A DNA stretch of 64,000 nucleotides from an uncultured Candidatus Binatia bacterium (GCA_965214605.1 OZ243961.1:3264001-3328000), one strand, 5' to 3'; shown: positions 4,154 through 63,793, counted from the stretch's first letter. Notes: generated by a model from the sequence alone, not told the origin. A program made the numbers and translations.

Positions 4154-5167
4154 TCAGCAGCCGGTTACCACAATCTTGCCGAAGTGGGCCGCGCTTTCCA
4201 TACACCGCAGGGCGTCCTGAGCATGTTCAAAGGGAAAGACTTGATCGATAACGGGCTGGGTGTGGTTGATTGCCATGGCCGCATTCATGTCCTCAAACAT
4301 ATCGCGCGAGCCAACATAGATGCCCTGTAGCCGGATGCTCTTTTGGAGCACTGGCATGGGGTCTGTTTTGCTGCCAAAGCCCGACAGCACGCCGATCAGG
4401 CCGATAAAACCGCCAACCCGGATAGCGTGAAACGACTGACTCAGGGTTCCGGCTCCACCGACCTCGACCACATGATCGACCCCCACTCCGTCGGTGAGTT
4501 CCAGGGCGGCTTTGCCCCACTCGGGAGTGGTGTTGTAGTTGATCAGATGGTCGGCGCCTAGCTGCTTGGCACGCTCTAATTTTTCGTCGCTGCTGGAGGT
4601 GATAATCACCCGCGCGCCGGCCGCTTTTGCAAACTGGAGGGCAAAGATTGACACGCCGCCGGTTCCCATTACGAGGATCGTATCACCGGCCTTGATGTGG
4701 CCGACCGAAACGAGGTCCTGCCAGGCGGTGAGCGCCGCGCAGGGCAGGGTGGCCGCGTCTTCATACGACATATAGTCCGGGATATGGACAACACCGTCCT
4801 GGTCTAACACCACATACTCGGCCCACATGCCGTCGAGCGCCCCGCCGAGAGCGGACTGGGCATGGCCGGCCTTTGGACCGCCCGACAGCCAGGATTGAAA
4901 GAAGAGGCCGGCCACCCGGTCGCCGGTTTTGACCCGGCTGACCGCCTCGCCAGTCGCCACCACTTCCCCGGCCCCGTCGGACAGCGGAATGAGGGGCTGC
5001 TTGAGGCCGCGCAGGCCACCGTGTTTGACCGTCATCAAATCCCGGTAGTTGAGCGAGGTGGCTTTAACCCGAATGCAGATCTGCTCGGGACCCGGCTGTG
5101 GATCGGGCAGCTCAACGCATTTTAACTGTTCGATGCCAAACTCTTGGTTGATTTCCCAGGCGCGCAT
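4154..5167 (-). CDS. NAD(P)-dependent medium-chain (MDR) oxidoreductase
   Basis: SLNYRD, PLSDGAG, TLPCAALTAW, GTGGVS, HFGKIV. Confidence 0.9.
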   Translation of the reverse strand: MRAWEINQEFGIEQLKCVELPDPQPGPEQICIRVKATSLNYRDLMTVKHGGLRGLKQPLIPLSDGAGEVVATGEAVSRVKTGDRVAGLFFQSWLSGGPKAGHAQSALGGALDGMWAEYVVLDQDGVVHIPDYMSYEDAATLPCAALTAWQDLVSVGHIKAGDTILVMGTGGVSIFALQFAKAAGARVIITSSSDEKLERAKQLGADHLINYNTTPEWGKAALELTDGVGVDHVVEVGGAGTLSQSFHAIRVGGFIGLIGVLSGFGSKTDPMPVLQKSIRLQGIYVGSRDMFEDMNAAMAINHTQPVIDQVFPFEHAQDALRCMESAAHFGKIVVTGC

Positions 5168-5233
5168 GTGAGACTCCTTCCTGGTGTATCTATGGAGAAT
5201 ATCTTCGATTCCGGCCCGTGCCCTTTTCGCTCC

Positions 5234-6250
5234 TCACCCGGCAAAGGCTTCGACAATTTTCCGCCAGCGTTTGTCATTCATCCCCGGCCGATCGGGATGA
5301 TAGAAGGCCACTCGGTCGAGCAGGCCGTGGTAGCGTTCTTTGAGCAGCGCCGGAATTTCCTCCGGAGAGCCGCTCACCGCGTACACGTCGAGCATTTCAT
5401 CGGTAATCTCTCTGGCCATTGTCCGCCACTCGCCCTGTGCCGCTTTTTTGTTAAGCGCTATACACACCTCGCCCCAGCCGTGCACGTCCAACACCGGCTT
5501 ATAGGTCCGGGTTGAGGCGTAGAAGGAGATCTGGCTGCGGACCTTTTCACGCATGGTGTCGATTTCCTTTTGACTGTCGCCCATGATGACAAAGGCCGAA
5601 CTGGAGAGACACACCTCTTTGCGGCTGCGGCCGGCCTTGGCCGCGCCCTCGGCAATCCGCGGAAGAACGCACTCGCGCAGAAATTGGGCCGAATGAAACG
5701 GGTGGGCGTGAAAGCCGTCACACAGCTCGCCGGCGAGGCGACACATGTAAGGGTTGACCCCGGCGATATAGATAGGCACCTGGGGGTGAGTGATCTTGCC
5801 TGGATGAAAGGCCGGTGTCATGAGCGTGTGGCGGAAAAACTGTCCCTCGAATCGCAGTGGGCTATCGTTCTGCCAACAGTCCCAAATCGCCCGCAGGGCT
5901 TGGATGATTTCGCGCAGTTTCGGCCCTGGGGATTCCCACGGCACGCTGTAGCGCCGTTGATTGTGCCCCTTGACCTGGGTGCCTAGACCCAACACAAAGC
6001 GGCCGTTTGACGACTTCTGAAGATCCCAGGCGGTATAGGCCAGCGACATTGGGCTACGGGGGAACGACAGGGCAATCGCCGTCCCCAGCCTGAGCCGACT
6101 CGTGTTCGTGGCGGCCACGGCCAGGGGCAGAAACGGGTCGTGGGTGTTTTCCATGCTCCAGGCCGCATCAAAGCCGACCTCTTCGGCGTAGCGGGCAATG
6201 GCGATGGCCTCCTGCAGCGAGTGAGCGGTCATCAGGGTGTCAAGTTTCAT
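5234..6250 (-). CDS. LLM-class oxidoreductase, probable F420-dependent (TIGR03617-like)
   Basis: HDPFLPL, AIALSFPRSPM, LGLGTQVKGH, FYASTRTY. Start moved to the ATG at 6250 (MKLDTL) behind a GGAG RBS. Confidence 0.85.
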   Translation of the reverse strand: MKLDTLMTAHSLQEAIAIARYAEEVGFDAAWSMENTHDPFLPLAVAATNTSRLRLGTAIALSFPRSPMSLAYTAWDLQKSSNGRFVLGLGTQVKGHNQRRYSVPWESPGPKLREIIQALRAIWDCWQNDSPLRFEGQFFRHTLMTPAFHPGKITHPQVPIYIAGVNPYMCRLAGELCDGFHAHPFHSAQFLRECVLPRIAEGAAKAGRSRKEVCLSSSAFVIMGDSQKEIDTMREKVRSQISFYASTRTYKPVLDVHGWGEVCIALNKKAAQGEWRTMAREITDEMLDVYAVSGSPEEIPALLKERYHGLLDRVAFYHPDRPGMNDKRWRKIVEAFAG

Positions 6251-6462
6251 CTCCGTGCTCTCCTGTCTCGGGGCGACTTGGCGCCGAAGCCTGTTGTGCC
6301 CACAGCCTGAGACAACCATGTGCCCGACCGGAAATCAACGCCGGACTTTCCTTGCCCCGGTCTGCCGGTCGGTATAAGACAGGGTCAGGACACAAATGGG
6401 GAGCATCCCGTCTGTCACTCAGGCAAGAAGAGCGATGATCTCCATTGCAAAGGAGGGCAGGT

Positions 6463-7386
6463 ATGGCAGCTGGTAACACCCCGTGCGGATTCGCAATTCC
6501 CCAAGTTTTTCCCGATTCCGGTGTTGATATGGGCTTTGTGCGCGATTTCGTGCGGCGGGCCGAAACGCTGGGCTATGACAGTCTGTGGGTCCAAGAAACC
6601 ATTTTGAGCGATTTTCCTATTCTTGAGCCAGTGACGCTGCTGACCTATGTGGCGGCGCTGACTACCAAGCTCAAGCTCGGCACCTCGGTCATGATCACCA
6701 CTCTGCGCAATCCCTTGCAGCTGGCCAAGGCCCTGTCGAGCCTGGACTGCATGAGCGAAGGACGGCTGATCGTTGGCGTTGGTGGCGGCGGGCATGTGCC
6801 TGAAACAGTCTTTGGCTACTCCAAAGAGCATCGGATGCGGCGTTTTGTTGAGGGGCTCGATATTATGAAAGCGCTGTGGACAGAGTCCAAGGCCAGCTAT
6901 AGCGGGATGTTCTGGCAGCTCAAAGACGCGGCCATGGAGCCCAAACCGGTCCAACAGCCGCATCCGCCGATTTGGTTTGGGGCTCGTTCAGAGTCGGCCC
7001 TGCGCCGGGCGGTCCGCCACGGCGATGGTTGGATGGGGGCTGGATCGTCGTCGAGTGCCGACTTTGTCAGCCAGTATGGTCATCTACAGCGCTTTCTCGA
7101 CCAAGCTCAGCGCGATCCGGCCCGCTTTGCAATCTCAAAGCGGGTATATGTGGCGGTCGATAACGACCGCGACCGGGCCGAACGACGGCTGCGGGAGTGG
7201 TTTGGGGTGCGCTATAAGAGTGTCGACATGGCCTCGCAGGTCTCGATCTGGGGGAGCCGCCAGGAGTGTATCGATAAGCTTGGGGAGCTGATCCAGGCCG
7301 GAGCGCGGCATCTGATGGTCAACCCCGCTTTTGACGATATGGAGCATTTGGAGGTCTTTGCCCAGGATATTATGCCGCGGCTCTGA
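6463..7386 (+). CDS. LLM-class flavin/F420-dependent oxidoreductase
   Basis: AETLGYDSLWV, PKPVQQPHPPIWFG, RAVRHGDGWM; RBS AAGGAGG before the ATG at 6463. Confidence 0.88.
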   Translation: MAAGNTPCGFAIPQVFPDSGVDMGFVRDFVRRAETLGYDSLWVQETILSDFPILEPVTLLTYVAALTTKLKLGTSVMITTLRNPLQLAKALSSLDCMSEGRLIVGVGGGGHVPETVFGYSKEHRMRRFVEGLDIMKALWTESKASYSGMFWQLKDAAMEPKPVQQPHPPIWFGARSESALRRAVRHGDGWMGAGSSSSADFVSQYGHLQRFLDQAQRDPARFAISKRVYVAVDNDRDRAERRLREWFGVRYKSVDMASQVSIWGSRQECIDKLGELIQAGARHLMVNPAFDDMEHLEVFAQDIMPRL

Positions 7387-7494
7387 TAAGCTAGCCCGAT
7401 AGGCTCTGGCCCGTGACACAGGTCATGAGCCTACTCGCTCGCCCTGACATCGGGACGGGGACTTCGGGGGTGAGCAGTCAGCATGAGGGCGACA

Positions 7495-7745
7495 TGGAGC
7501 AGGACGCGCGGTGGTGCGTCGCTCCGGTGGGGAAAAGTCGAGACGAGTCATTGCAGAGTACCGGGGACGCTTGATGCCCGAAGAGACGGCGACGGCCTCT
7601 TGATGCTCTGGTTGGACCCTGACAACGCCTCCCTCCTCCGGCTGGCCACGACACACGGATTGACCACGTATGACGCGAGGTCCCGAGAATCCCACGAGCA
7701 GCCACTTGCTCCCCTTGACCCCAAACTCCGCGCGGCGACACAGAC
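7495..7745 (+). pseudogene. Frameshifted remnant of a VapC-like PIN-domain toxin
   Basis: Collinear fragments in different frames: GRAVV / ASLRW / VIAEYRGRLMPEE / LLRLATTHGLTTYDA / PLAPLDPKLRAA. These match the PIN pattern AVVPxLW..AERRGR..LAxxHGLTxYDA..PLATLDxxLRxAA. Boundaries approximate. Confidence 0.6.
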
Positions 7746-7845
7746 TGATAGCGCTCATAGCATAAGAGCAGCTGTGTAAAGCCCCGGCTGACCGCACCCG
7801 ATGGGGCGGCCGGTTACCGTCGACAGTCACGGCGGTGTGTCGCCC

Positions 7846-8781
7846 TTACTGTTCGACCACTTGGGGCTGCTGCTTGGGGGGGAAGAGAAAGGAGGCCGCG
7901 ATTGAGATGCCTAAAATCCCAGCGATGATACCGAGGGAGGCACCGATCGGAATCTTATAGATATCGGCCAGTAGCATCTTGACCCCCACAAAGCTCAACA
8001 CACAGCCTAGGCCGTAGCGCAGATAGACGAACAGCTCTAGGACGCCGACGACCAGGAAGAACTGGGCGCGTAAGCCCAGGACAGCAAAGACATTTGAGGT
8101 GTAAACAATAAACGGCTCGTTGGTGACGGCAAAAATGGCCGGGATCGAGTCAATGGCAAAGACCAGGTCGGTGGTCTCGACCGTGATCAGCACGACCAGC
8201 AGGGGGGTGGCAAACCGGCGACCGTCACGCCAGACTATAAAACGTTGGCCTTCATAGCCTTGGGTGATTGGCATAAAGCGCCGCAGTAGCTTGAGGGCCG
8301 GATTATTGCCCGGGTCGGTGTGCCCGTCTTCCCTGGCCAGCATGCGTATGCCGGTAAAGACCAGAAAGGCCCCAAATATATAGATGACCCAGTGGAAGTG
8401 GTGGAGCAGGGCGGCGCCGATTCCGATGAAGAAGCCGCGCATAACGAGCACGCCCAGAATGCCCCAAAACAGCACCCGGTGGCGGTATATCTCCGGCACC
8501 GAAAAGTATGAAAACAGCAGGAGGAAGACGAAGATATTGTCGACGCTCAACGACTTTTCTATGAGATAGCCGGCAAAAAATTCGAGCGCCCGCTCTTTGC
8601 CGTAGAAGAAGTAGATGGTGATATTGAACAGCATGGCCAGGCCAACCCAGAGGATACTCCACAGGGCGGCCTCTTTTTTCGACACCACATGGGCGTGGCG
8701 GTGGAAGACGGTCAGGTCAAGGAGCAATAGCCCCAGCACCACGACCGTAAATACGAGCCACATCCACAGATCAATATACAT
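7846..8781 (-). CDS. terC: TerC/Alx family integral membrane protein
   Basis: YLIEKSLSVDNIFVF, ETTDLVFAIDSIPA, YTSNVFAVLGLR. Confidence 0.93.
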   Translation of the reverse strand: MYIDLWMWLVFTVVVLGLLLLDLTVFHRHAHVVSKKEAALWSILWVGLAMLFNITIYFFYGKERALEFFAGYLIEKSLSVDNIFVFLLLFSYFSVPEIYRHRVLFWGILGVLVMRGFFIGIGAALLHHFHWVIYIFGAFLVFTGIRMLAREDGHTDPGNNPALKLLRRFMPITQGYEGQRFIVWRDGRRFATPLLVVLITVETTDLVFAIDSIPAIFAVTNEPFIVYTSNVFAVLGLRAQFFLVVGVLELFVYLRYGLGCVLSFVGVKMLLADIYKIPIGASLGIIAGILGISIAASFLFPPKQQPQVVEQ

Positions 8782-20516: not shown

Positions 20517-21386
20517 ATGGTCCAGGCTCAATCGCTACGGGCTCTCTTAGCCCAAGATCGACTCTTTATGGCGGCCGGTGCCTATGACGTGATCTCGGCG
20601 CGGCTGGTTGAAGAGGCCGGTTTTCCGCTGGTGTATTATTCCGGTGGGATATCGGCCGGGGCGCTTGGCTATCCCGATTTTGGGATGCGGACCCTGACCG
20701 AGATGGTCATGCAGCTAGAAGGGGTGTGTCGGGCGGTGAGTGTCCCGGTGATTGCCGATGCTGAGGCCGGCTTTGGCACGCTGCTCAACGTTGTACGCAT
20801 GGTCCAGGAGTACGAGCGGATCGGCGTTGCCGGGCTGCATCTCGAGGACCAGGACCTGCCCCGCCGGTGTGGTCACTTGGGCGGCAAGCTGTTGGTGTCG
20901 GCCCAGGATCACGCGACGAAAATTCGGGTTGCGGTCGAGAACCGCAGCCATGACAACACGCTGATTATCGCTCGCATCGATGCCATTGCGGTCAGCGGCT
21001 TTGACGACGCCCTAGCCCGGGCCGACGCCTATCTCGAAGCCGGGGCTGATTGCCTGTTTTTTGAGGCGTTTGAGTCGGTCAAGCAGATGGAGACGGCGTG
21101 CCGTCGCTTCTCTGACATTCCGCTCCTGATCAACATGGTTGAGGGCGGGAAAACGCCTTTCTTGCCGGCGCCGGATCTGGCTGATATGGGCTTTCGGATT
21201 GCAATCTATCCGGTGGCCGGGGTGTTGGCCGCCGCCTACCAGATGAAAAAAGTGTACGCGACGCTCAAAGAGACCGGGACAACCCAGGGACTCTGGCACG
21301 AAATGCTACCGTTTACCGAGGTGGTCAACGGGCTGCTGGGTTGGGATCAGGCACTTGAGTTTATCGATCGATATACCCAGAAGTAG
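20517..21386 (+). CDS. Isocitrate lyase/PEP mutase superfamily C-C lyase (methylisocitrate/dimethylmalate lyase-like)
   Basis: GAYDVISA, IADAEAGFG, LEDQDLPRRCGH, NMVEGGKTP. Confidence 0.87.
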   Translation: MVQAQSLRALLAQDRLFMAAGAYDVISARLVEEAGFPLVYYSGGISAGALGYPDFGMRTLTEMVMQLEGVCRAVSVPVIADAEAGFGTLLNVVRMVQEYERIGVAGLHLEDQDLPRRCGHLGGKLLVSAQDHATKIRVAVENRSHDNTLIIARIDAIAVSGFDDALARADAYLEAGADCLFFEAFESVKQMETACRRFSDIPLLINMVEGGKTPFLPAPDLADMGFRIAIYPVAGVLAAAYQMKKVYATLKETGTTQGLWHEMLPFTEVVNGLLGWDQALEFIDRYTQK

Positions 21387-54625: not shown

Positions 54626-56008
54626 TCACTCTTCTTGCGACAGCCGATAGGCGGTGCCCTCAGTCATCTGATGGACGTTATAGTTCCACTCGCCCATCCA
54701 CTTCTCGACCACCGTATAGGCCGGACACTGGCCGCGGGCGATTTCTTCCCGCAGGCGTTCGAGGTACAGCGTCTCGTTTTCTCCGTCTTCATTGACGTCG
54801 TTTTGGCGTTCTAGGCCTTCCCAGGCAATTGAGACCAGCTCACTGGCATACTCGTGCAACCGGATACCTTGGACCCGGACGCCGAGGGCTTCTCGGTGGG
54901 CGGCTTTATAGGCGGCGAGCCGTTCTTCCCAGCTCCACTTTTTGACCAGATCCCAGGCCGCCCACAGCGGGTCATTGTCGTAGAAAATGCCTTTACACAA
55001 CGCAGGTACGGCCAACATCAGCTCATAGGGTTGGCTATCAAAACAGCGCAGCTCAAGGTAGCGCTTGATGCGTACCTCGGGGAAGAGCGTGGTGAGGTGT
55101 TGGTGCCAATCTTCGAGGGTGGCCCGGTGTCCGTCGTGACCGTGCTCAAGATAGTGCCGAAATGGAATACCGGTCATGTCGATCCATTGACCCTGCCGGA
55201 CAATAAAATACATTGGGACGTTCAGGGCATACTCAGTATAGTCTTCAAAACCGGCCTGATCGGAAAAGGCAAAGGGCAGCAGACCGCACCGGCGTGGGTC
55301 GGTTTTGGTCCACACATGGCTGCGCATGCTCATATAGCCGTTCAGTTTGCCGTCCGAGAAGGGCGAGTTGGCAAACATGGCGCTCAGAATTGGGACTAGG
55401 CCCATGCCGACCTTAAACTTGGTCATCGCGTCGGTCTCATCGCTGAAATCGAAGTTGACCTGCACGGAGGCCGTTTGTTTCATCATCCGATGGCCCAGCG
55501 TACCAACCTGATCCATATAGGGAGCCATGAAATGATAGCGCGTCTTGGGAATCCACTGAATATCGCTGAGGGGACTGAGCGGCTGCATGCCGAGATTCAA
55601 AAAGTCGAGTTCGAGGGCGTCCCCAGCCGCTAAGAGATGTTCGAAGTAGTTTTGTAACTCGGCAGACGTCCCGTGAATGGTTTTACACTGCTCGCCCGAC
55701 AGTTCGACCTGAGCCCCGGGCTCAAGGGTGATATTGGCCCGTTCGCCGCGCAGGGCAATCACATGGCCCTCTTCCTCCTGTGGCTCCCAACCCAGCGAGT
55801 CGGATAGCCGGAACAGGAGGCGTTCAATGCCTCGGTTTGTTGAGTAGCGGGCAGCTCTGCCGCTGCGGCGCGATACGCCGACCATTTCGTATTCCGTGCC
55901 GATGCGCCAGTCTTGGCGCAGTTTTCCGGCTTGGTAGAAGTAATCAGTGAGTTGGGATTGGTGCTCGACGACCTGTTCGGCGTCAGGTCCCTCGACGTAT
56001 TGCGACAT
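54626..56008 (-). CDS. gshA: Glutamate--cysteine ligase (GCS2, plant/alphaproteobacterial type)
   Basis: IGTEYE, TLEPGAQVELSG, PKTRY, QVNFD, FANSPF, VPMYF, HLTTLFPEVR...ELR. Confidence 0.9.
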   Translation of the reverse strand: MSQYVEGPDAEQVVEHQSQLTDYFYQAGKLRQDWRIGTEYEMVGVSRRSGRAARYSTNRGIERLLFRLSDSLGWEPQEEEGHVIALRGERANITLEPGAQVELSGEQCKTIHGTSAELQNYFEHLLAAGDALELDFLNLGMQPLSPLSDIQWIPKTRYHFMAPYMDQVGTLGHRMMKQTASVQVNFDFSDETDAMTKFKVGMGLVPILSAMFANSPFSDGKLNGYMSMRSHVWTKTDPRRCGLLPFAFSDQAGFEDYTEYALNVPMYFIVRQGQWIDMTGIPFRHYLEHGHDGHRATLEDWHQHLTTLFPEVRIKRYLELRCFDSQPYELMLAVPALCKGIFYDNDPLWAAWDLVKKWSWEERLAAYKAAHREALGVRVQGIRLHEYASELVSIAWEGLERQNDVNEDGENETLYLERLREEIARGQCPAYTVVEKWMGEWNYNVHQMTEGTAYRLSQEE

Positions 56009-56137
56009 GCGTCCCCCTTAACACGGCTCTCTGCCCGCCCCCAAAGCGGCCTTAGAGTAGCAAACACACTTGCTAAGGCAAGGGGTTTTTGCCGGGGAGG
56101 GGCTGCTTACAGAGGAGGGGAAAGGTAGTATCGGTGG

Positions 56138-56953
56138 ATGCCGAGGGATTCTATGCCCGAGAGAGCGTTGGCCCTAGACCGGTGGGAAGAGCTGGTGTCC
56201 CGCCTGCGCCAGAAACGCCCGGCCGTTTTCCTGGATTATGACGGCACCTTAACGCCTATTGTTGCGCGGCCAGAGCTGGCGGTGTTGGCTGAGGAGATGC
56301 GCCGGACGGTTCGGACGCTTGCTGCTCGTTGTCCGGTTGCCATTGTCAGTGGTCGGGACCGGATCGATGTCCAACGTCTCGTCGGTATTGAGGGGCTGAT
56401 TTACGCTGGGAGCCACGGTTTTGATATTGCCGGCCCGCCGAGTATGGGCCTGACCTATGAACAGGGCCACGGTTTTTTGGCCAGTCTAGATCGGGTTGAG
56501 CACGATCTCCGCCGGTTCTTGTCGGGGATTGATGGGGTACGCGTGGAGCGTAAGAAGTTCTCTCTTGCGCTCCACTTTCGTGAGGCTGCGCGTCAACACG
56601 CGGCGCGCGTAGAGCCGATTGTTGACGCGGTGTTAGGCCGTTACCCAGAGTTGCGCAAGGGCCTGGGAAAAAAGGTCTTTGAGCTGCGGCCAGCCATTGA
56701 TTGGCATAAGGGCAAGGCTGTGTTGTGGCTGTTGGACGCGTTGGGATTTACCGGGACGGAGGCTTTGCCGGTGTGCATTGGTGATGATGTGACGGATGAG
56801 GACGCGTTTAGCGCTGTGGCTGGACGTGGCCTTGGGATTCTGGTGGCAGAGGCGCCACGGGTGAGTGCGGCTGACTACCGGCTCAAGAGTCCGGCTGAGG
56901 TCCAGATTTTTCTCCAAAAATTCGCCACCGTGCTTGATCTGAAGGATGATTGA
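56138..56953 (+). CDS. otsB: Trehalose-6-phosphate phosphatase
   Basis: [42 protein letters not shown]. Confidence 0.93.
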
Positions 56954-58592: not shown

Positions 58593-58910
58593 CTAGAGCC
58601 GCAGGTAGAGAGTGCCGTTTTCAATTTTTACCGGATATACCGTTGCCCGAGCTGGGCGTGGGCTGGTGCCGTCGCGCAGCTCAAATCGCCAGCCGTGCAT
58701 TGGGCATTTGATGCCGCCTCTGTCGTCGATAAAGCCTCGGATAAGCGGCCCTCTGCGGTGAGGACACCGGTTTTTGATGGCGTACACCGTGCCGTTGATA
58801 TTGAACAGGGCGATCTCCACGCTCTTGACCTTCACCAGCTTGCGTTCTCCAGGGGGGAGGGCGGCTGTGGGGCAGGCTTCGAGCCATTCGGCGGCAGACT
58901 CTAGGGGCAT
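58593..58910 (-). CDS. Rieske [2Fe-2S] ferredoxin
   Basis: CPH...CPMHGW ligand motifs; 105 aa. Confidence 0.92.
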   Translation of the reverse strand: MPLESAAEWLEACPTAALPPGERKLVKVKSVEIALFNINGTVYAIKNRCPHRRGPLIRGFIDDRGGIKCPMHGWRFELRDGTSPRPARATVYPVKIENGTLYLRL

Positions 58911-58955
58911 GGACTGAACTGTCAGACGTCAAACCATAGTGATGTTTGCCGTTTG

Positions 58956-59939
58956 CTAGGGAATGTAGCCCCAGAGCCGAACGACAGCCCGGGGATCTGG
59001 ACTGCGGTAGGCTTTGTATTTCAACAGGGTATCAATACCGTCACAGGTCCGCTCCAGATTGGTCTCTAGATCCGGGAAGTCGCCCCAACCGCTGGGATTC
59101 TTATTGCTGAGAATCCAGTCCAGACCGCGCCCAATGGCCCCGTGGCCGTAGGCGTCCCCCAGCAAACGGGTCACGACCATCAAAGATCGGGTACAATCCA
59201 TAGAGTGGTCGACATTTTCCCCATCCCAAGAGCCGTCGGCAGCCTGCCACTCATAGAGCTTGTGGGTCCCTTTGGTGCACGCCTCACGCACCCCGCTGAG
59301 TTGGCTGTCCATGGCCAGGTCGGCAATCAGGGCGTCTTGAATAAGGTGGGCGGTGATCTCAACTCCCGAAGGATGAAACTCTTCGTCGTACCAGCCCCCG
59401 TCCTCGTCTTGATTATCAAGAATAAACCGTGCTCCCTTTTGCCAAGCCGGGACGACTTCGGACCGTCGATAGGGCTCTCCCAAAGCCATGACGACATTGA
59501 AGAAGCTGACCGGATGGCTAGTGGTGTCGAGATCCGCCCAGCTTGGATCGACCCATCGACCGTCGCCGTGTTGGGTATCAAGAAAATAATCAATCGCTCT
59601 GTGCACGGCTCGGCTGAGACGATCCTGCTGTAAAAAACGGTTGCCTCGAATCAGCATCAGGCCGCAAAAGGCCGAGACCCACACCGTGCTCTCTCGGTCG
59701 GCCGAAAACGGACTCCAACCCCCATCCCGCGTCTGGCAGTCAACCAGGGCGAGGTAGTCGTCCAAAAAATCTGGGGGAGTGCGGGCGTGTAGGACAACCC
59801 GCAACGCGTGCGCCACAAGCTCCAGATCTTGGGGACCAGCCGTCAAACTCCAGCCCGGTTTTTCGCGGACAAAAAACCTGTATTCGTCCTGCACGAGTTG
59901 GTCGATCTTTTCAAGAGCAAGCTCCATATCGTCCGTCAT
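58956..59939 (-). CDS. Prenyltransferase/squalene-cyclase repeat (QW-motif) protein
   Basis: QTRDGGW, QHGDGRW, QDEDGGW, QAADGSW, KNPSGW repeats; 327 aa, about one (alpha/alpha)6 barrel. Confidence 0.8.
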   Translation of the reverse strand: MTDDMELALEKIDQLVQDEYRFFVREKPGWSLTAGPQDLELVAHALRVVLHARTPPDFLDDYLALVDCQTRDGGWSPFSADRESTVWVSAFCGLMLIRGNRFLQQDRLSRAVHRAIDYFLDTQHGDGRWVDPSWADLDTTSHPVSFFNVVMALGEPYRRSEVVPAWQKGARFILDNQDEDGGWYDEEFHPSGVEITAHLIQDALIADLAMDSQLSGVREACTKGTHKLYEWQAADGSWDGENVDHSMDCTRSLMVVTRLLGDAYGHGAIGRGLDWILSNKNPSGWGDFPDLETNLERTCDGIDTLLKYKAYRSPDPRAVVRLWGYIP

Positions 59940-60012
59940 CCTTCATCTGTGACACTCCACCCATCACAGTGTACACGCCCGAACCGGTTTAGGGCGTATA
60001 AGGGGCGCGTTG

Positions 60013-61683
60013 TTATTTCATTTTCGCCCACGCCCGGCGATAATCCTCAAATGTATCAATTTCCAACCAGCCTTTGTAAATATCCACACACGCGATCTGA
60101 TGGTCGTGGTTTATCAGTTCTTGTAACATATCGGTAAAAGCGGCCTGCCGGAGCGAGGCGGCTTCGTGAAAGCGGCTGGTGGGCGACCGTTCGCAGATCG
60201 TGTGATAGGTCCGGCGTAAGAGCCGGGCACCCGCCTCAGAAAACATAGCGAGGCCAATAAACTCGCCATCCGCCTCAGACAGGTCTCGGCCAATGCGGGC
60301 CAGCGTCGTACCTTCTGTTGTGGGCAGAAAGCGATAGCCGGTCTGGGGCGGCTGGTGGGTGACGACTAAGTCCGGCTTATTGGCCTGGATTGCTTCGGCT
60401 GAGCGGGGCTGGTCGTTCCACGCCCGATCAACCACAATGCTGATATCGGCCTGTGATTTCAGCAGTTTCTCGACGATGGTCGGGTCGAAGATAATATCGG
60501 AGTACAGAAACAAAAACTGCCCCGACATTTCCGCCTCGGCCAGAAACAGCGAGGATAACTCTCCGGTGTCGAGAAACGCGTCGTTGTCGTAGTAGCGGAT
60601 ATTGGACAGGTTAATCTGCTCCTTTTGGTAGCCGCGCACCACAACGATATCTTTGACCCCACAGTCGTTGAGGGCGCTGATCTGGCGCTCAAGAATCGTC
60701 TGGCCTTTGATTTCCAGCATTGCCTTGGGACGATCTTCAATGAGCGGCAGCAAGTTTTCTTCAAAGCCGGCGGCGATAATAATAGCGGTCAGCCGGTGGC
60801 CACCCGGGACCAAGAATTTTTGCTCATTGGCCTGCAGAGCTGGCACGCCGACCAATTCGTATATATCGGGCAGGCTGGCAATCTGGTCATCGACCGCGCC
60901 TGGCCGGCTCTCGGCCTTCATCGTGGCTAGGGCGTGGCGCATGGCGCTGACGGCTGCCCGGAGAACTTGGTTGGCAAAGATCACCAGCTTAAATCCGGCA
61001 CTCGCCAGCTCGGCGACGGTGGTGTCGGCGTACGTCGTTGGGACACACACCAGCGGGCAAGGGTTGTTCCAGTCTGCTGTAAATTCCTGGAGTTCCTCAA
61101 AGTTCGTCGCCTTGGAATGGACCAAAATGGCATCGGCGCCGGCTTCAGCATAGGCCTCGGCACGCTTGAGTGCTTCGTGTTTACCCCAACCGGCAATCAA
61201 CGCCTCCGTGCGGGCGATGACCACAAAATTCGGATTGTTTTGAGCCGTTTTCGCGGCCTGAATTTTGCGGGCGTGTTCATCAACGGGAACCAACTCGCGT
61301 CGGACCCCGGCGTAAAAGCTGCACCGTTTCGGAAAGATATTGTCCTCAATACACAGCCCCGCAACGCCCGCCCGCTCGTATTCGGCAACCGTGCGTATGA
61401 CGTTGATGGCGTTGCCAAAGCCATTATCGCAGTCGGCAATGACGGGGACGTTGACCGCGTCGCACATGCGGCGGACGGCGTCGAGCGTCTCGCTCATAGT
61501 GAGAATATTCGCGTCGGGGAGCGCGCTCACTGCAGAAATGCCAAAGCCGCTCGCCCAGATCGCATCAAAGCCGGCCTCTTCGGCCAACTTAGCAGACAGC
61601 GCATCGTGGGCTCCAAGGACTAAGCCTGGCTGTGCACGGCCCAGCAAAACCCGCAGTTTTTCTGTCATGGAAAGGGCAGGCAT
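60013..61683 (-). CDS. PEP mutase/phosphonopyruvate hydrolase-like domain fused to a LicC/PntC-like nucleotidyltransferase
   Basis: N-terminal GAHDALSA, IWASGF, PDAN, DCDNGFGN, EDNIFPKRCSF, ARTEALIAG, VHSK, VPTTY; C-terminal IIAAG...PK, VRGY, YSDI, EFIGL, WLEIDT. Confidence 0.88.
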   Translation of the reverse strand: MPALSMTEKLRVLLGRAQPGLVLGAHDALSAKLAEEAGFDAIWASGFGISAVSALPDANILTMSETLDAVRRMCDAVNVPVIADCDNGFGNAINVIRTVAEYERAGVAGLCIEDNIFPKRCSFYAGVRRELVPVDEHARKIQAAKTAQNNPNFVVIARTEALIAGWGKHEALKRAEAYAEAGADAILVHSKATNFEELQEFTADWNNPCPLVCVPTTYADTTVAELASAGFKLVIFANQVLRAAVSAMRHALATMKAESRPGAVDDQIASLPDIYELVGVPALQANEQKFLVPGGHRLTAIIIAAGFEENLLPLIEDRPKAMLEIKGQTILERQISALNDCGVKDIVVVRGYQKEQINLSNIRYYDNDAFLDTGELSSLFLAEAEMSGQFLFLYSDIIFDPTIVEKLLKSQADISIVVDRAWNDQPRSAEAIQANKPDLVVTHQPPQTGYRFLPTTEGTTLARIGRDLSEADGEFIGLAMFSEAGARLLRRTYHTICERSPTSRFHEAASLRQAAFTDMLQELINHDHQIACVDIYKGWLEIDTFEDYRRAWAKMK

Positions 61684-61786
61684 GACCAAAACTATACGAT
61701 CTCGGGTCAGGAACAACAAGTGCCCGAGCACTCCGTCGCCAGTCCCTCATAGGGCGTCGATTTGCCTATGGTTTTCTGGCTAGACG

Positions 61787-63688
61787 TCAGGGAGCTAGGT
61801 CAATACGCTGGAGGTCGTGGAGAGCGTGCCTGATTTCGTCTAGGCGGTCGTCTAGGGTGGTTGGTGAATCCACCGGAAAAACGGCCCCCTGCCAGCGGTC
61901 CGGGTCTCGAAGCCAGGCGGCAAGGATCACACTGGCATCGATTTCCTCTGGGCGCAGCGGCACGTCACGATCCTGATCAAAGCGTTCCCGGGCCAGGGTG
62001 GCAAAGGGCGTGATATCGGTCTCTGACCGGACAAGACCGCTATGGATGAGCCGCCCGTTGAGCACGAGATAGACTTGGGCAGCCCCGGGGTGGCGGCTGG
62101 GTAGGAGCAGAAAAGCGTGCGTGCGGGTAATGATCCAGTCGAACAGGAGATGAATATGCAGGATGTGATCGAGCAGCTCGATGTCCTTTTGCAGGCGGGC
62201 GGCGCTCTCGAACCGTAGGCAGGCGGCTAGTTCGTCGCGTTTGGCAAGCAGGGCGTCCCGTACCCCTGTTTCATTGCCCTGAAGAAACCGCTGGAATGTC
62301 TCGACCTGCTCATGATACGCATCGTGTGACACCTGCAGATTACACGGGGCGGTACAGGCCCCGATCTGACCACTGACACACGGGGAAAAGTTTGGGTCTG
62401 GAGCTAGATTACCCTGACAGGTACGCAGACCAAACAGGCGAGCTAGTAGCCGCTGGGCTTTTTCGGCAAAGTCCCGGCTGCGAAAGGGGCCGATGTAAAG
62501 GGCCCGGTTAGCGGCCGGTTTTGTGGCCAGTGACAGGCGTGGAAACCGGTTTGTGACGCTCAGCTTAAGGAAGGCTACCCGTGGGAGGTGTTTTGAGCGG
62601 GTGTTATAAGGCGGCTTGAGGGTCCGGATGAGCGCTGCCTCGCGGAGCGCTGCTTCAAGCTCTGAGCCCGTCTGTTCGTAGCTGACGCTATGGACATGAC
62701 GCACGAGGTCGAGCACTTTATTACTGTGGCTGGAAGAGTTGGTGAAATACGAGCTGACCCGCCGTTTGAGGTTTTTTGCCTTTCCGATATACAACAATCG
62801 TCCCTCGCCGTTGAGCATGCGATACACGCCGGGTCCGTCCGGGATATGAGCCAGGGCGGGGCGGGGCAGCTGATATGCAAAACGGCGACCGTCACGGGCG
62901 GTATGCTGAAAGTCGAGCAGCTGGCCAAGGGTCATGATGCCGCGCGCTGGGAGTTGTTCCAGAAAGATGAGAAACACCTCTGCGGTGATGCGCGCATCAC
63001 CGCGGGCCCGGTGGCGGTCGGGACCTGAGACGCCGCACTGAGCGGCAAGCGCGTCAAGGGTGTGGGAACGGTGGCTGGGCAAAAGGCGCTTGGCCAAACG
63101 GACGGTACACAGGGTAGGGTTGAGTAGCGGGCTAGCTCTGAGACGTTTGGCGTCAAAGTTGAGGAAAGCCAGGTCAAAATCGGCGTTATGAGCGACAAGT
63201 GGGGTGGATCCGATAAAGGTTTGAAAGAGCGGAAAGACCGCGTCAATAGGTGGCTGATCGTGCAGCATCTGGTCGGTAATACCGGTTAGTCGGGTGACAG
63301 CCGGCGGCACCCGTCGACCGGGATTGACCAAGGCGTGAAACTCCTCTGTCAGTCGTCCGTGTTTGACCCGAACTGCCGCAATTTCGGTAATGGCGGCCGG
63401 GCCCGGTTTGAAGCCGGTCGTTTCAAGATCAAGAACGACAAACTCGGCATCGGGAATCGGCCTTTGGAGAGAAGCATGGACTGTGGCAGACCAACGATCG
63501 GTAGTCGCATCGTACGAAAAATGTGAATCTGAACCGATTGCCGCATGCAGAAAACGGGCCTCAAACTCAACCCTCCGATTGGGTTTGAGACCCGAACCCG
63601 CCCCGGGCGTGAAGAGCAGGTTGAGGAGTTCAGCTGAGCTGGCTCCTCCGGGCCGGGCGAGCACGTAATCGTATAATTTTTTGCGCAT
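61787..63688 (-). CDS. DEDDh exonuclease (PolIII epsilon-like) fused to a GIY-YIG/UvrC N-terminal (Cho-like) endonuclease
   Basis: LDLETTG, AHNADFD, HRARGDA; PGVY...YIGKAKNLKRRVSSYF, ELEAALRE...PPYN, Cys cluster, UVR motif LRFESAA. Confidence 0.9.
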   Translation of the reverse strand: MRKKLYDYVLARPGGASSAELLNLLFTPGAGSGLKPNRRVEFEARFLHAAIGSDSHFSYDATTDRWSATVHASLQRPIPDAEFVVLDLETTGFKPGPAAITEIAAVRVKHGRLTEEFHALVNPGRRVPPAVTRLTGITDQMLHDQPPIDAVFPLFQTFIGSTPLVAHNADFDLAFLNFDAKRLRASPLLNPTLCTVRLAKRLLPSHRSHTLDALAAQCGVSGPDRHRARGDARITAEVFLIFLEQLPARGIMTLGQLLDFQHTARDGRRFAYQLPRPALAHIPDGPGVYRMLNGEGRLLYIGKAKNLKRRVSSYFTNSSSHSNKVLDLVRHVHSVSYEQTGSELEAALREAALIRTLKPPYNTRSKHLPRVAFLKLSVTNRFPRLSLATKPAANRALYIGPFRSRDFAEKAQRLLARLFGLRTCQGNLAPDPNFSPCVSGQIGACTAPCNLQVSHDAYHEQVETFQRFLQGNETGVRDALLAKRDELAACLRFESAARLQKDIELLDHILHIHLLFDWIITRTHAFLLLPSRHPGAAQVYLVLNGRLIHSGLVRSETDITPFATLARERFDQDRDVPLRPEEIDASVILAAWLRDPDRWQGAVFPVDSPTTLDDRLDEIRHALHDLQRIDLAP

Positions 63689-63793
63689 GGCAGAGAACAC
63701 CCGGCAATCGAAGACTTGTGTCGCCACCGGACTCACTGTAGAATCTGGCCGCTAGCATAGCGCTAACAGTGGGACTTTCCAAGGATTTGCCGC

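Follow-up and report, generated by a model that had tools for sequence, protein, structure and literature searches.

Three adjacent genes encode a PEP-mutase-like fusion, a toroid protein and a Rieske ferredoxin

We analysed a 64,000-nucleotide stretch of DNA, hereafter the window, from an uncultured Candidatus Binatia bacterium (GCA_965214605.1 OZ243961.1:3264001-3328000); it corresponds to C1:3264001-3328000 of a 4.37 Mb genome that is estimated to be 99.99% complete. Three co-directional open reading frames (ORFs) on its minus strand, separated by intergenic gaps of 73 and 45 nt, encode a phosphoenolpyruvate (PEP)-mutase-like domain fused to a nucleoside triphosphate (NTP) transferase-like domain (the fusion), a protein with squalene-cyclase-type repeats (the toroid protein, or toroid) and a small Rieske-type ferredoxin (Table 1). 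An alternative GTG start at 61731 would lengthen the fusion to 572 amino acids, and a scan for consensus matches found no terminator-like site in either gap. An earlier note on this DNA had grouped the three genes as a candidate undescribed pathway. ORF and Pfam analysis confirmed the ORFs, both gap lengths and all three domain calls and, as the note had remarked, no gene resembling phosphonopyruvate decarboxylase (Ppd) adjoins the three genes in the 64-kb window. The findings described below bear on the pathway in which these genes take part, which is likely one for a phosphonate lipid head group.

Table 1. Position of the three genes, their diagnostic motifs and their nearest neighbours in the window
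Feature	Position	Strand	Basis or remark
PEP-mutase-like/NTP-transferase fusion, 556 aa from ATG	60013..61683	(-)	PF13714 residues 14-255, E 2.2e-62; PF12804 residues 317-418, E 3.4e-12
PEP-mutase-like domain, residues 1-294 of fusion	60802..61683	(-)	end-to-end alignment with solved PEP mutases
Deviant signature EDNIFPKRCS	61318..61347	(-)	PEP mutases at this position: EDKxxxxxNS
Nucleotidyltransferase-like domain (LicC/PntC-like), residues 295-556 of fusion, probably not catalytic	60013..60801	(-)	LicC 1JYK, E 1.7e-14
Degenerate nucleotide-binding signature AAGFEENLLPL	60742..60774	(-)	compared with LicC AAGLGTRLRPL
Toroid protein, 327 aa, single-domain (alpha/alpha)6, squalene-cyclase-type repeats, "SHC-like"	58956..59939	(-)	PF13243 SQHop_cyclase_C, E 1.8e-9
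WADLDTTSHP of toroid, inner-helix start	59511..59540	(-)	invariance in 22-sequence alignment
Rieske-type [2Fe-2S] ferredoxin, 105 aa	58593..58910	(-)	PF00355, E 1.1e-18; PF13806, E 4.6e-17
Rieske cluster ligands C49-P-H51, C69-P-M-H72	58695..58766	(-)	orthologue alignment
ECF sigma factor, 183 aa	57953-58504	(-)	just downstream of Rieske gene
zf-HC2 anti-sigma factor, 243 aa	57232-57963	(-)	11-nt overlap with ECF sigma gene
DEDD exonuclease fused to GIY-YIG/UvrC-like region	61787-63736	(-)	NF005906, 448.7 bits, below cut-off; upstream of fusion

The fusion belongs to a clade of PEP-mutase-like proteins with a deviant loop

TIGR02320 (PEP mutase) is the best NCBIfam model for the fusion, ahead of those for phosphonopyruvate hydrolase (PPH; 256.2 bits) and PrpB (195.2 bits), and returns a score of 286.6 bits (289 bits in the genome search) against a cut-off of 319.55. 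The best solved relatives are the PEP mutase 5UNC (E 3.1e-82), the phosphonopyruvate hydrolase 2DUA (E 2.3e-70) and the mussel PEP mutase 1M1B (E 1.3e-66). In the aligned loop, 5UNC reads IEDKRFPKVNSF, 1M1B LEDKLFPKTNSL, PPH 2DUA MEDKTFPKDTSL and the fusion IEDNIFPKRCSF; measured against the motif EDKxxxxxNS, the fusion has Asn in place of Lys and Cys in place of Asn. Its loop type, EDNxxPKRCSFY, is present in 120/120 homologues among the matches listed, which are 58-93% identical to the fusion, and all 80 of the related genome loci carry ED(N/S)xxPKRCSF, one of them with EDS. The deviation is a clade-wide property and not a sequence error. Records belonging to this clade are labelled Binatia, Nitrospirota, Polyangiaceae, Planctomycetota, Acidobacteriota and others.

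The fusion retains the residues WASG, DCDNG, E113, K119, R158 and H189-S-K, which are of the type found in PEP mutase (PepM) and PPH and are identical to those of 5UNC and 1M1B; the HSK string is found in 79 of the 80 related loci and HSR in the other. The roles of these active-site residues are known from work on the mussel enzyme. The position of H189 is occupied by Glu or Asp in four lyase-type paralogues of the isocitrate lyase/PEP mutase (ICL/PEPM) superfamily encoded in the same genome, whose loops read KRCGH, KRCGF, RRCGH or are unrelated. One such paralogue lies inside the window, at 20535-21326 on the plus strand (C1:3284535-3285326; L005), and has the lyase-type loop EDQDLPRRCGH. No ORF of the genome carries EDKxxxxxNS. 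Since such an ORF is missing and the paralogues have lyase-type or other loops, the fusion is the only candidate source of phosphonopyruvate in this genome. Judged from its sequence, the N-terminal domain quite probably has PEP mutase activity.

Canonical PepM-nucleotidyltransferase fusions, with the loop IEDKLFPKKNSF, also occur in Binatia, namely in genomes G206 (L113 6496-8118) and G271 (L114 4070-5680). They are 37-39% identical to the fusion in the window, and no Ppd or AepZ gene was found near them on the stretches fetched.

The fused nucleotidyltransferase domain lacks its nucleotide-binding signature

The C-terminal domain of the fusion matches PF12804 with 47.3 bits (cut-off 27), and LicC is its closest solved relative. 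The nucleotide-binding signature is an N-terminal G-x-G-(T/S/K)-R. This GxGxR string is gone from the fused domain (Table 1), and the full G-x-G-x-R is found in 0/80 related loci. It thus appears more likely that the fused domain is structural or regulatory than that it is catalytic. In contrast, a stand-alone NTP transferase encoded elsewhere in the genome retains the signature (AAGIGKRF), and its best match, over the whole length, is the 2-aminoethylphosphonate (AEP)-specific PntC 6PD1 (E 5.5e-14).

A decarboxylase and further phosphonate genes lie elsewhere in the genome

The earlier note had seen in the missing neighbour a possible sign of an undescribed pathway. A route that dispenses with Ppd is not supported, since a search of the same genome found a conventional ppd/aepZ locus to account for the PepM-like gene: a two-subunit Ppd (PpdA/PpdB) is encoded at C1:2121.2-2122.3 kb, ~1.2 Mb from the fusion, and PpdA/PpdB, AepZ and the PntC-like NTP transferase stand together at C1:2.121-2.124 Mb. 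Findings from relatives point the same way, since in these Ppd, AepZ and PntC directly follow the fusion in one operon, and the fusion and PpdB, each present in 71 of 201 Binatia genomes, occur together in 66.

The gene order at this second locus (L014) is MlaA-like, HpnM-like, HpnN-like, PpdA, PpdB, AepZ and NTP transferase, followed by an ArnT-like transferase, an LmtA-like methyltransferase, HpnK and HpnI. HpnK and HpnI score above their cut-offs, while AepZ reaches 359 bits with TIGR03301 (cut-off 360.8). The Ppd and AepZ genes are therefore flanked by HpnM/HpnN-like genes on one side and HpnK/HpnI on the other, that is, by a hopanoid-tailoring locus. The genome also has genes for an LPG_synthase_TM-like protein (2.131 Mb), a CDP-alcohol transferase-like protein (4.006 Mb) and a true squalene-hopene cyclase (SHC; gene shc, 3.815 Mb; 655.5 bits, cut-off 431.1). 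The pathway genes are thus scattered among three places in this genome, namely the window, 2.117-2.132 Mb and 4.006 Mb. No 2-oxoglutarate (2OG)/Fe(II) oxygenase gene is present at these three loci, the TauD (4 hits) and PhyH (1 hit) matches lying at least ~110 kb away, and none was seen among the annotated neighbours in related loci, where annotation does not extend to every ORF.

We considered a sulfopyruvate decarboxylase/taurine route as the primary explanation and rejected it, because the nucleophile in a PntC-type reaction has to be a phosph(on)ate. No sulfolactate-pathway genes were seen, though no explicit search for one was made.

Gene order and co-occurrence link the three genes to phosphonate synthesis

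In the 21 closest loci, in which the fusion is at least 72% identical, the fusion, toroid and Rieske genes are adjacent in 19. The exceptions are L017, which lacks the toroid/Rieske pair, and L028, which ends inside the fusion. The arrangement is not a matter of chance. Adjacency is thus conserved in Binatia, bearing out the functional linkage that the earlier note had guessed at. In one Binatia genome (G200, L096) a single strand carries the fusion, toroid, Rieske, PpdA, PpdB, AepZ, PntC and CDP-OH transferase genes in this order, with LPG_synthase_TM and HpnI nearby. A second (G218, L095) has the same order with a 4.9 kb insert, and HpnI beside the operon, while a third (G254, L099) has the fusion, PpdA, PpdB, AepZ, PntC and CDP-OH transferase with neither toroid nor Rieske gene. 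The insert in L095 stands between PpdB and AepZ and holds genes for a B12-binding radical-SAM protein and a HATPase_c_3 protein (5262-6935, minus strand), which may provide a methylating tailoring step.

In G330 the toroid gene stands within the hopanoid/Ppd locus (L098), and the intact fusion is found on another contig. A remnant of the 5' end of the fusion (residues 5-67, 71-75% identical) lies just upstream of this toroid gene, at 5782-5972, and looks like the trace of a rearrangement that split the operon. The single operon is the ancestral arrangement. Outside Binatia, in Nitrospirota and other phyla, the fusion stands beside PpdA-PpdB-AepZ-PntC-CDP-OH transferase-LPG_synthase_TM, and of the 59 more distant loci (L036-L094), 37 have a PpdA or PpdB gene no farther than ~3 kb from the fusion.

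Co-occurrence was counted in 201 Binatia genomes, including the present one, with thresholds of E<=1e-100 for the fusion and E<=1e-30 for PpdB; related genomes are not independent, and the counts are accordingly descriptive, with no statistical test attached. Behind the 66 genomes with both genes stand five with the fusion and no PpdB (G272, G296, G197, G306, G335) and five with PpdB and no fusion (G312, G159, G292, G317, G344), and most of these ten mismatches involve incomplete genomes or weak, partial PpdB matches. With the two canonical genomes (G206, G271) subtracted, the deviant-motif fusion is present in 69/201. The toroid gene was found in 33 of the 201 genomes, every one of which also has the fusion. 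In 30 of them the toroid gene and the fusion are direct neighbours; in G223 the two are 2.7 kb apart, and in G330 and G338 they are on different contigs. Among the 22 related loci that hold a toroid gene, the Rieske gene follows it in 21. Conversely, 38 of the 71 fusion genomes have no toroid gene, many of them having Ppd.

A second sample comprised 201 genomes of one Nitrospirota class, chosen around the genome that holds locus L040. Here the toroid gene is present in 2/201, a close fusion type (at least 61% identical) in 32/201, and a fusion type of 36-38% identity, counted regardless of motif, in 45/201. Two Nitrospirales loci, L040 and L064, carry the pair between PntC and the CDP-OH transferase, inside a Ppd-AepZ-PntC-transferase operon. 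A metagenome scan found 12 loci. In seven of them a more distant toroid relative (30-38% identity) is encoded immediately before PntC; a CDP-OH transferase gene comes next in six of these and LPG_synthase_TM in four, the other contigs ending earlier. The remaining five (L100-L104) are short contigs with no phosphonate gene. One metagenome contig (L108) also bears the fusion, PpdAB and AepZ. On the plus strand of this contig, between AepZ and the distant toroid homologue (4570-7991), there are genes for an Fe-alcohol dehydrogenase, a 71-aa ORF, an APH-type kinase and a member of the inositol-monophosphatase family, and the product of this variant may be hydroxyethylphosphonate-type or polyol-linked.

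In 25 of the 80 related loci, mostly from Nitrospiraceae, the gene immediately preceding the fusion belongs to a family of 170-200-aa proteins that we call "unk190" (for example L039 9276-9890, L057 198-758 and L075 8851-9927). The family has no Pfam match at E<=1 and occurs in no toroid-bearing locus among the 80. Mutual exclusion of "unk190" and toroid was considered as a functional signal and set aside, because it tracks phylogeny.

The toroid protein has an (alpha/alpha)6 fold and polar invariant residues

The toroid protein scores far under the cut-offs of the cyclase models (47.9 against 322.7 bits for TIGR01787 and 32.1 against 431.1 bits for TIGR01507). Its family is small, with 316 matches in a word-indexed search and, among 1.84 billion representatives, 240 clusters at E<=1e-3 and 21 at E<=1e-30; a protein atlas search returned same-family clusters only. 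The AlphaFold model (pLDDT 93.3, pTM 0.91) consists of one (alpha/alpha)6 toroid. Foldseek placed class II cyclase domains at the top (drimenyl-PP synthase and SHC, TM ~0.6), whereas the top VIA-align matches were AGE-type epimerases (Z 27, 311 residues aligned), practically tied with drimenyl-diphosphate synthase, SHC and small myxobacterial cyclases at Z 25-26; the monodomain cyclase MstE scored Z 23.5. Since cyclases and AGE-type epimerases score alike, the fold alone gives no function for the toroid.

The residues W134, A135, D136, L137, D138, S141, H142 and P143 are invariant in 22 toroid sequences, and T139 and T140 nearly so. This WADLDTTSHP string falls at the beginning of an inner helix, 136-152 in the model. 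The DxDD motif is absent from the toroid, which has only D136-L-D138. The polar residues that are invariant in the 22 sequences are E40, H44 and R47; S84; D136, D138 and H142; E194 and H198; D244, H245, D248, C249 and R251; and E296, R297, C299 and D300. According to the secondary-structure string of the model, they group where the six inner helices begin and would thus be predicted to face the cavity. In the wider family (25-57% identical), H44, R47, D244, D248, R251 and D300 are each conserved in 90% or more of the members, and D138, H198 and H245 in the majority. D136 is not kept, and D138 is the only residue of WADLDTTSHP that is widely kept in these relatives. With its single toroid and polar invariant residues, the protein is not a squalene cyclase. 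A monodomain cyclase of the MstE type would have a single beta-type toroid whose catalytic DxD points into a hydrophobic cavity; the toroid protein matches the MstE fold at Z 23.5 and has a DxD string, of which D136 is not kept in wider relatives, and its sequence match to MstE has an E value of 0.09.

The Rieske protein is a clear member of its family, with a PF00355 score of 67.4 bits (cut-off 20.3), and its CPH...CPMH ligands are invariant in 15/15 aligned orthologues. The nearest NCBIfam models are of the HcaC and NirD types, all below cut-off. No Rieske neighbour was detected for the distant toroid relatives in the metagenome loci.

Other genes near the three

Of the 21 closest loci, just four (L015, L018, L019, L029) have the extracytoplasmic function (ECF) sigma and anti-sigma genes downstream of the three genes, and we therefore rejected the sigma pair as a part of the conserved unit. 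A homologue of the DEDD/GIY-YIG gene occurs in 18 of the 21, mostly directly upstream of the fusion, and is probably an unrelated housekeeping gene. Beyond the sigma pair, the interval 54626-56953 holds a plant-type glutamate-cysteine ligase gene (TIGR01436, 444.5 bits, just under cut-off) and, on the opposite strand to it, a trehalose-phosphatase gene (TIGR00685, above cut-off).

A proposed AEP lipid-head-group pathway

We think it likely that the three genes represent the front end, now detached, of a conserved pathway to an AEP lipid head group of the "Group 1 / CDP-OH" type; the fusion would then most probably serve as the PEP mutase of this known cluster type. The pathway that we infer from the domain content, motif states, synteny and co-occurrence observed above is predicted in each of its catalytic steps, in its product and in the role given to the toroid/Rieske pair. 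The N-terminal domain of the fusion would convert PEP to phosphonopyruvate, and PpdAB, encoded 1.2 Mb away, would pull this unfavourable reaction by converting phosphonopyruvate to phosphonoacetaldehyde. AepZ would then form AEP from phosphonoacetaldehyde, and the stand-alone PntC-like enzyme would activate AEP to CMP-AEP. Finally, the CDP-alcohol-type transferase would place the phosphonate onto a membrane lipid alcohol, together with the flippase-like LPG_synthase_TM protein. The lipid acceptor is perhaps hopanoid-related, as suggested by the locus that holds Ppd and AepZ.

The earlier note was right in linking the three genes, as seen from their synteny in Binatia and from the Nitrospirales loci L040 and L064, in which the pair stands inside the Ppd-AepZ-PntC operon; a pathway without Ppd is not supported. 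Its idea of an isoprenoid modification keeps some weight. A link to hopanoid lipids is plausible, given that Ppd and AepZ are flanked in this genome by HpnM/HpnN-like genes on one side and by HpnK/HpnI on the other.

Within this pathway, the toroid/Rieske pair would be an optional accessory. That the pair performs or supports a redox-linked tailoring or handling step on the phosphonate head group or its acceptor is a tentative proposal, to which we give distinctly less than an even chance; it is our first guess because one partner carries a Rieske cluster, the conserved toroid residues are polar and the loci have no 2OG oxygenase. A bolder version, which we think rather unlikely, would hold both that the pair is a new two-component Fe-S-dependent enzyme built on a terpene-cyclase scaffold, acting in head-group tailoring (for example in an oxidative step that replaces a 2OG oxygenase) or in joining to a hopanoid, and that the Asn/Cys loop marks a large overlooked PEP mutase clade discarded by all motif-filtered surveys.

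Several findings weigh against assigning the three genes to an AEP lipid pathway. The fusion scores below the TIGR02320 cut-off and lacks EDKxxxxxNS, the two formal marks of a PepM. The only solved enzyme that deviates from PepM at the motif Asn is phosphonopyruvate hydrolase, which has Thr there and performs different chemistry, and therefore Cys at this position could alter the reaction. The loop Cys also aligns with the catalytic Cys in the KRCGH loop of methylisocitrate lyases. The Ppd subunits score alike on the sulfopyruvate decarboxylase models (TIGR03845/TIGR03846) and on TIGR03297, and below all cut-offs. The pathway genes of the present genome occupy at least three separate loci, so that any co-regulation would be hypothetical. 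With respect to the toroid/Rieske pair, no oxygenase-type partner is evident, and since no Rieske neighbour was detected beside the distant toroids, the toroid is not strictly dependent on one. Moreover, the fold searches fail to separate terpene cyclases (Z 25-26) from AGE-type epimerases (Z 27), and the placing of toroid residues along the cavity is a prediction from the secondary-structure string.

Alternative explanations

Some of these points would be accommodated if the fusion were a repurposed member of the PEP-mutase/isocitrate-lyase superfamily, for example a hydrolase or lyase acting through its loop Cys, such that no C-P bond is made or its product is used by the toroid and not by Ppd. 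Besides the unusual motif and the score below cut-off, the PKRCSF loop comes close to PKRCGH and PKRCGF, as found in lyase-type paralogues from this genome, the models do not decide between phosphonopyruvate and sulfopyruvate decarboxylase for the Ppd-like subunits, and the toroid gene of Binatia is placed between the fusion and Ppd. However, the fusion shows tight linkage and co-occurrence with Ppd, with an AepZ that scores at the TIGR03301 cut-off and with a PntC-like enzyme whose best solved relative is the AEP-specific PntC, a gene set that has no known function without phosphonopyruvate, and no other candidate mutase was found in this complete genome. His189 and the other residues of the PepM/PPH type are retained in place of the lyase-type Glu, and many genomes have the fusion together with Ppd and no toroid gene, which is missing from 38 of the 71 fusion genomes. 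We consider this explanation improbable. For the pair, the idea that toroid and Rieske are unrelated passengers, such as a redox or stress module of the neighbouring ECF sigma factor, draws on the sigma/anti-sigma genes downstream in the window and on the lack of any known biochemical connection between the pair and the making of phosphonates; five of the 12 metagenome loci, moreover, show no phosphonate gene on their short contigs. It is nevertheless very improbable, given that the sigma pair accompanies only 4 of the 21 close loci, that the toroid gene is found only in fusion-bearing genomes (33/33), and that it keeps company with phosphonate genes in three arrangements (after the fusion, in the interval between PntC and the transferase, and before PntC), which span Binatia, Nitrospirales and metagenome contigs.

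The toroid could also be a small terpenoid-handling enzyme or binder, either a monodomain class II cyclase like MstE or a binder of hopanoids or polyprenols. It would then form or present an isoprenoid acceptor, in line with the isoprenoid modification suggested in the earlier note, and the product would be a phosphono-terpenoid or phosphono-hopanoid. Its repeats are of the squalene-cyclase type, class II cyclase domains are its best Foldseek matches (TM ~0.6) and MstE is matched at Z 23.5. As described in the available text of PMC12324236, MstE uses DxD and not DxDD, and the D136-L-D138 of the toroid is invariant in the 22 sequences. Genomic context agrees in that the Ppd and AepZ genes of this genome lie among hopanoid genes, the toroid gene of G330 is itself within the hopanoid/Ppd locus and HpnI adjoins the operons in L095 and L096; a phosphonoterpene has, moreover, been speculated upon for Nitrosococcus clusters (PMC8942020, in its available text). 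Nevertheless, the invariant residues are polar or charged and not the aromatic lining expected of a cyclase cavity, D136 is lost in the wider family, and the DLDTT string also occurs at a non-catalytic SHC repeat, and the motif may therefore have a structural function. At profile level there is no significant match to MstE, AGE-type epimerases fit the fold at least equally well, and a Rieske partner has no role in acid-catalysed cyclisation. On balance, a terpenoid-handling toroid seems unlikely, albeit less so than a repurposed fusion.

Relation to known systems

The cluster type and the fusion of PEP mutase (Ppm) to a nucleotidyltransferase are already known. "Group 1" or "Burkholderiales_CDP-OH" predicted phosphonolipid clusters go back to Yu et al. 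2013, as cited in Li & Horsman 2022 (PMC8942020). According to the available text of the latter, their catalogued content is a Ppm-PntC fusion, Ppd, AEPT, a second PntC and two phospholipid-type genes, the seven-gene core includes a 2OG/Fe(II) oxygenase, and the product has never been characterised. The same core logic is found here, the phospholipid-type genes being represented in relatives by the CDP-alcohol phosphatidyltransferase and LPG_synthase_TM; the gene set is complete in one operon or locus in L096, L099 and many Nitrospirota loci and is dispersed in the present genome. In contrast to Group 1, the mutase lacks EDKxxxxxNS, Ppd is split into two subunits, no 2OG/Fe(II) oxygenase is seen at the loci and the toroid/Rieske pair is added. 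In the present genome, furthermore, the cluster is broken into at least three loci, with the Ppd part embedded in hopanoid genes.

Comparison with single enzymes gives a similar mixture of likeness and difference. The fusion shares metal- and substrate-binding residues, domain order and fusion partner with the PEP mutases 5UNC and 1M1B, its closest solved homologues, and differs from them in EDN for EDK, CS for NS, a TIGR02320 score below cut-off and a fused domain without GxGxR. Phosphonopyruvate hydrolase (PalA; 2DUA), the second-best solved relative, likewise deviates at the motif Asn, yet retains EDK and has Thr where the fusion clade has Cys. The genomic context of PalA is, as far as is known, catabolic, with phosphonoalanine transaminase and not Ppd, AepZ or PntC. 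The toroid has QW-type repeats, the (alpha/alpha)6 toroid and the DxD string in common with class II terpene cyclases (SHC, MstE) and is of nearly the same size as MstE, whereas SHC is a two-domain (beta-gamma) protein of ~600 aa with DxDD and the toroid has 327 aa, one domain, no DxDD and polar invariant residues. Small Rieske ferredoxins of the HcaC, NirD and AndAb types share their size, fold family and complete CxH...CxxH with the Rieske protein, which misses all equivalog cut-offs, has no dioxygenase or nitrite reductase nearby and has the toroid as its constant neighbour.

Fusions of Ppm to PF12804 are described as the commonest Ppm form in the available text of Rice et al. 2019 (PMC6697681), and phosphonate inventories define Ppm by the motif EDKxxxxxNS (PMC6697681 and PMC8942020, as far as their available text goes). 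In that of Rice et al., all PF13714 proteins without the motif were removed, and only 22 of those removed were fusions (PMC6697681). A literature search, mostly of papers outside subscription journals, found no published description of a motif-less mutase clade, of the degenerate fused domain or of the toroid/Rieske pair; within the same, mostly non-subscription scope, none was found of a pathway that is split over several loci and linked to hopanoids.

Because its loop lacks EDKxxxxxNS, the fusion clade is discarded by motif-filtered surveys. Estimates of phosphonate producers rest, in the available text of these surveys, on filtering PF13714 proteins for this motif, which a clade linked to Ppd, AepZ and PntC escapes. 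If the enzymes of the fusion clade are active, then present counts underestimate C-P lipid synthesis among bacteria of soil and water, and the change from Asn to Cys would bear on which residues are truly required for the mutase reaction. The toroid/Rieske pair is a compact, conserved and pathway-specific module that offers a handle on new biochemistry, and the link to hopanoid genes points to a possible undescribed class of lipids.

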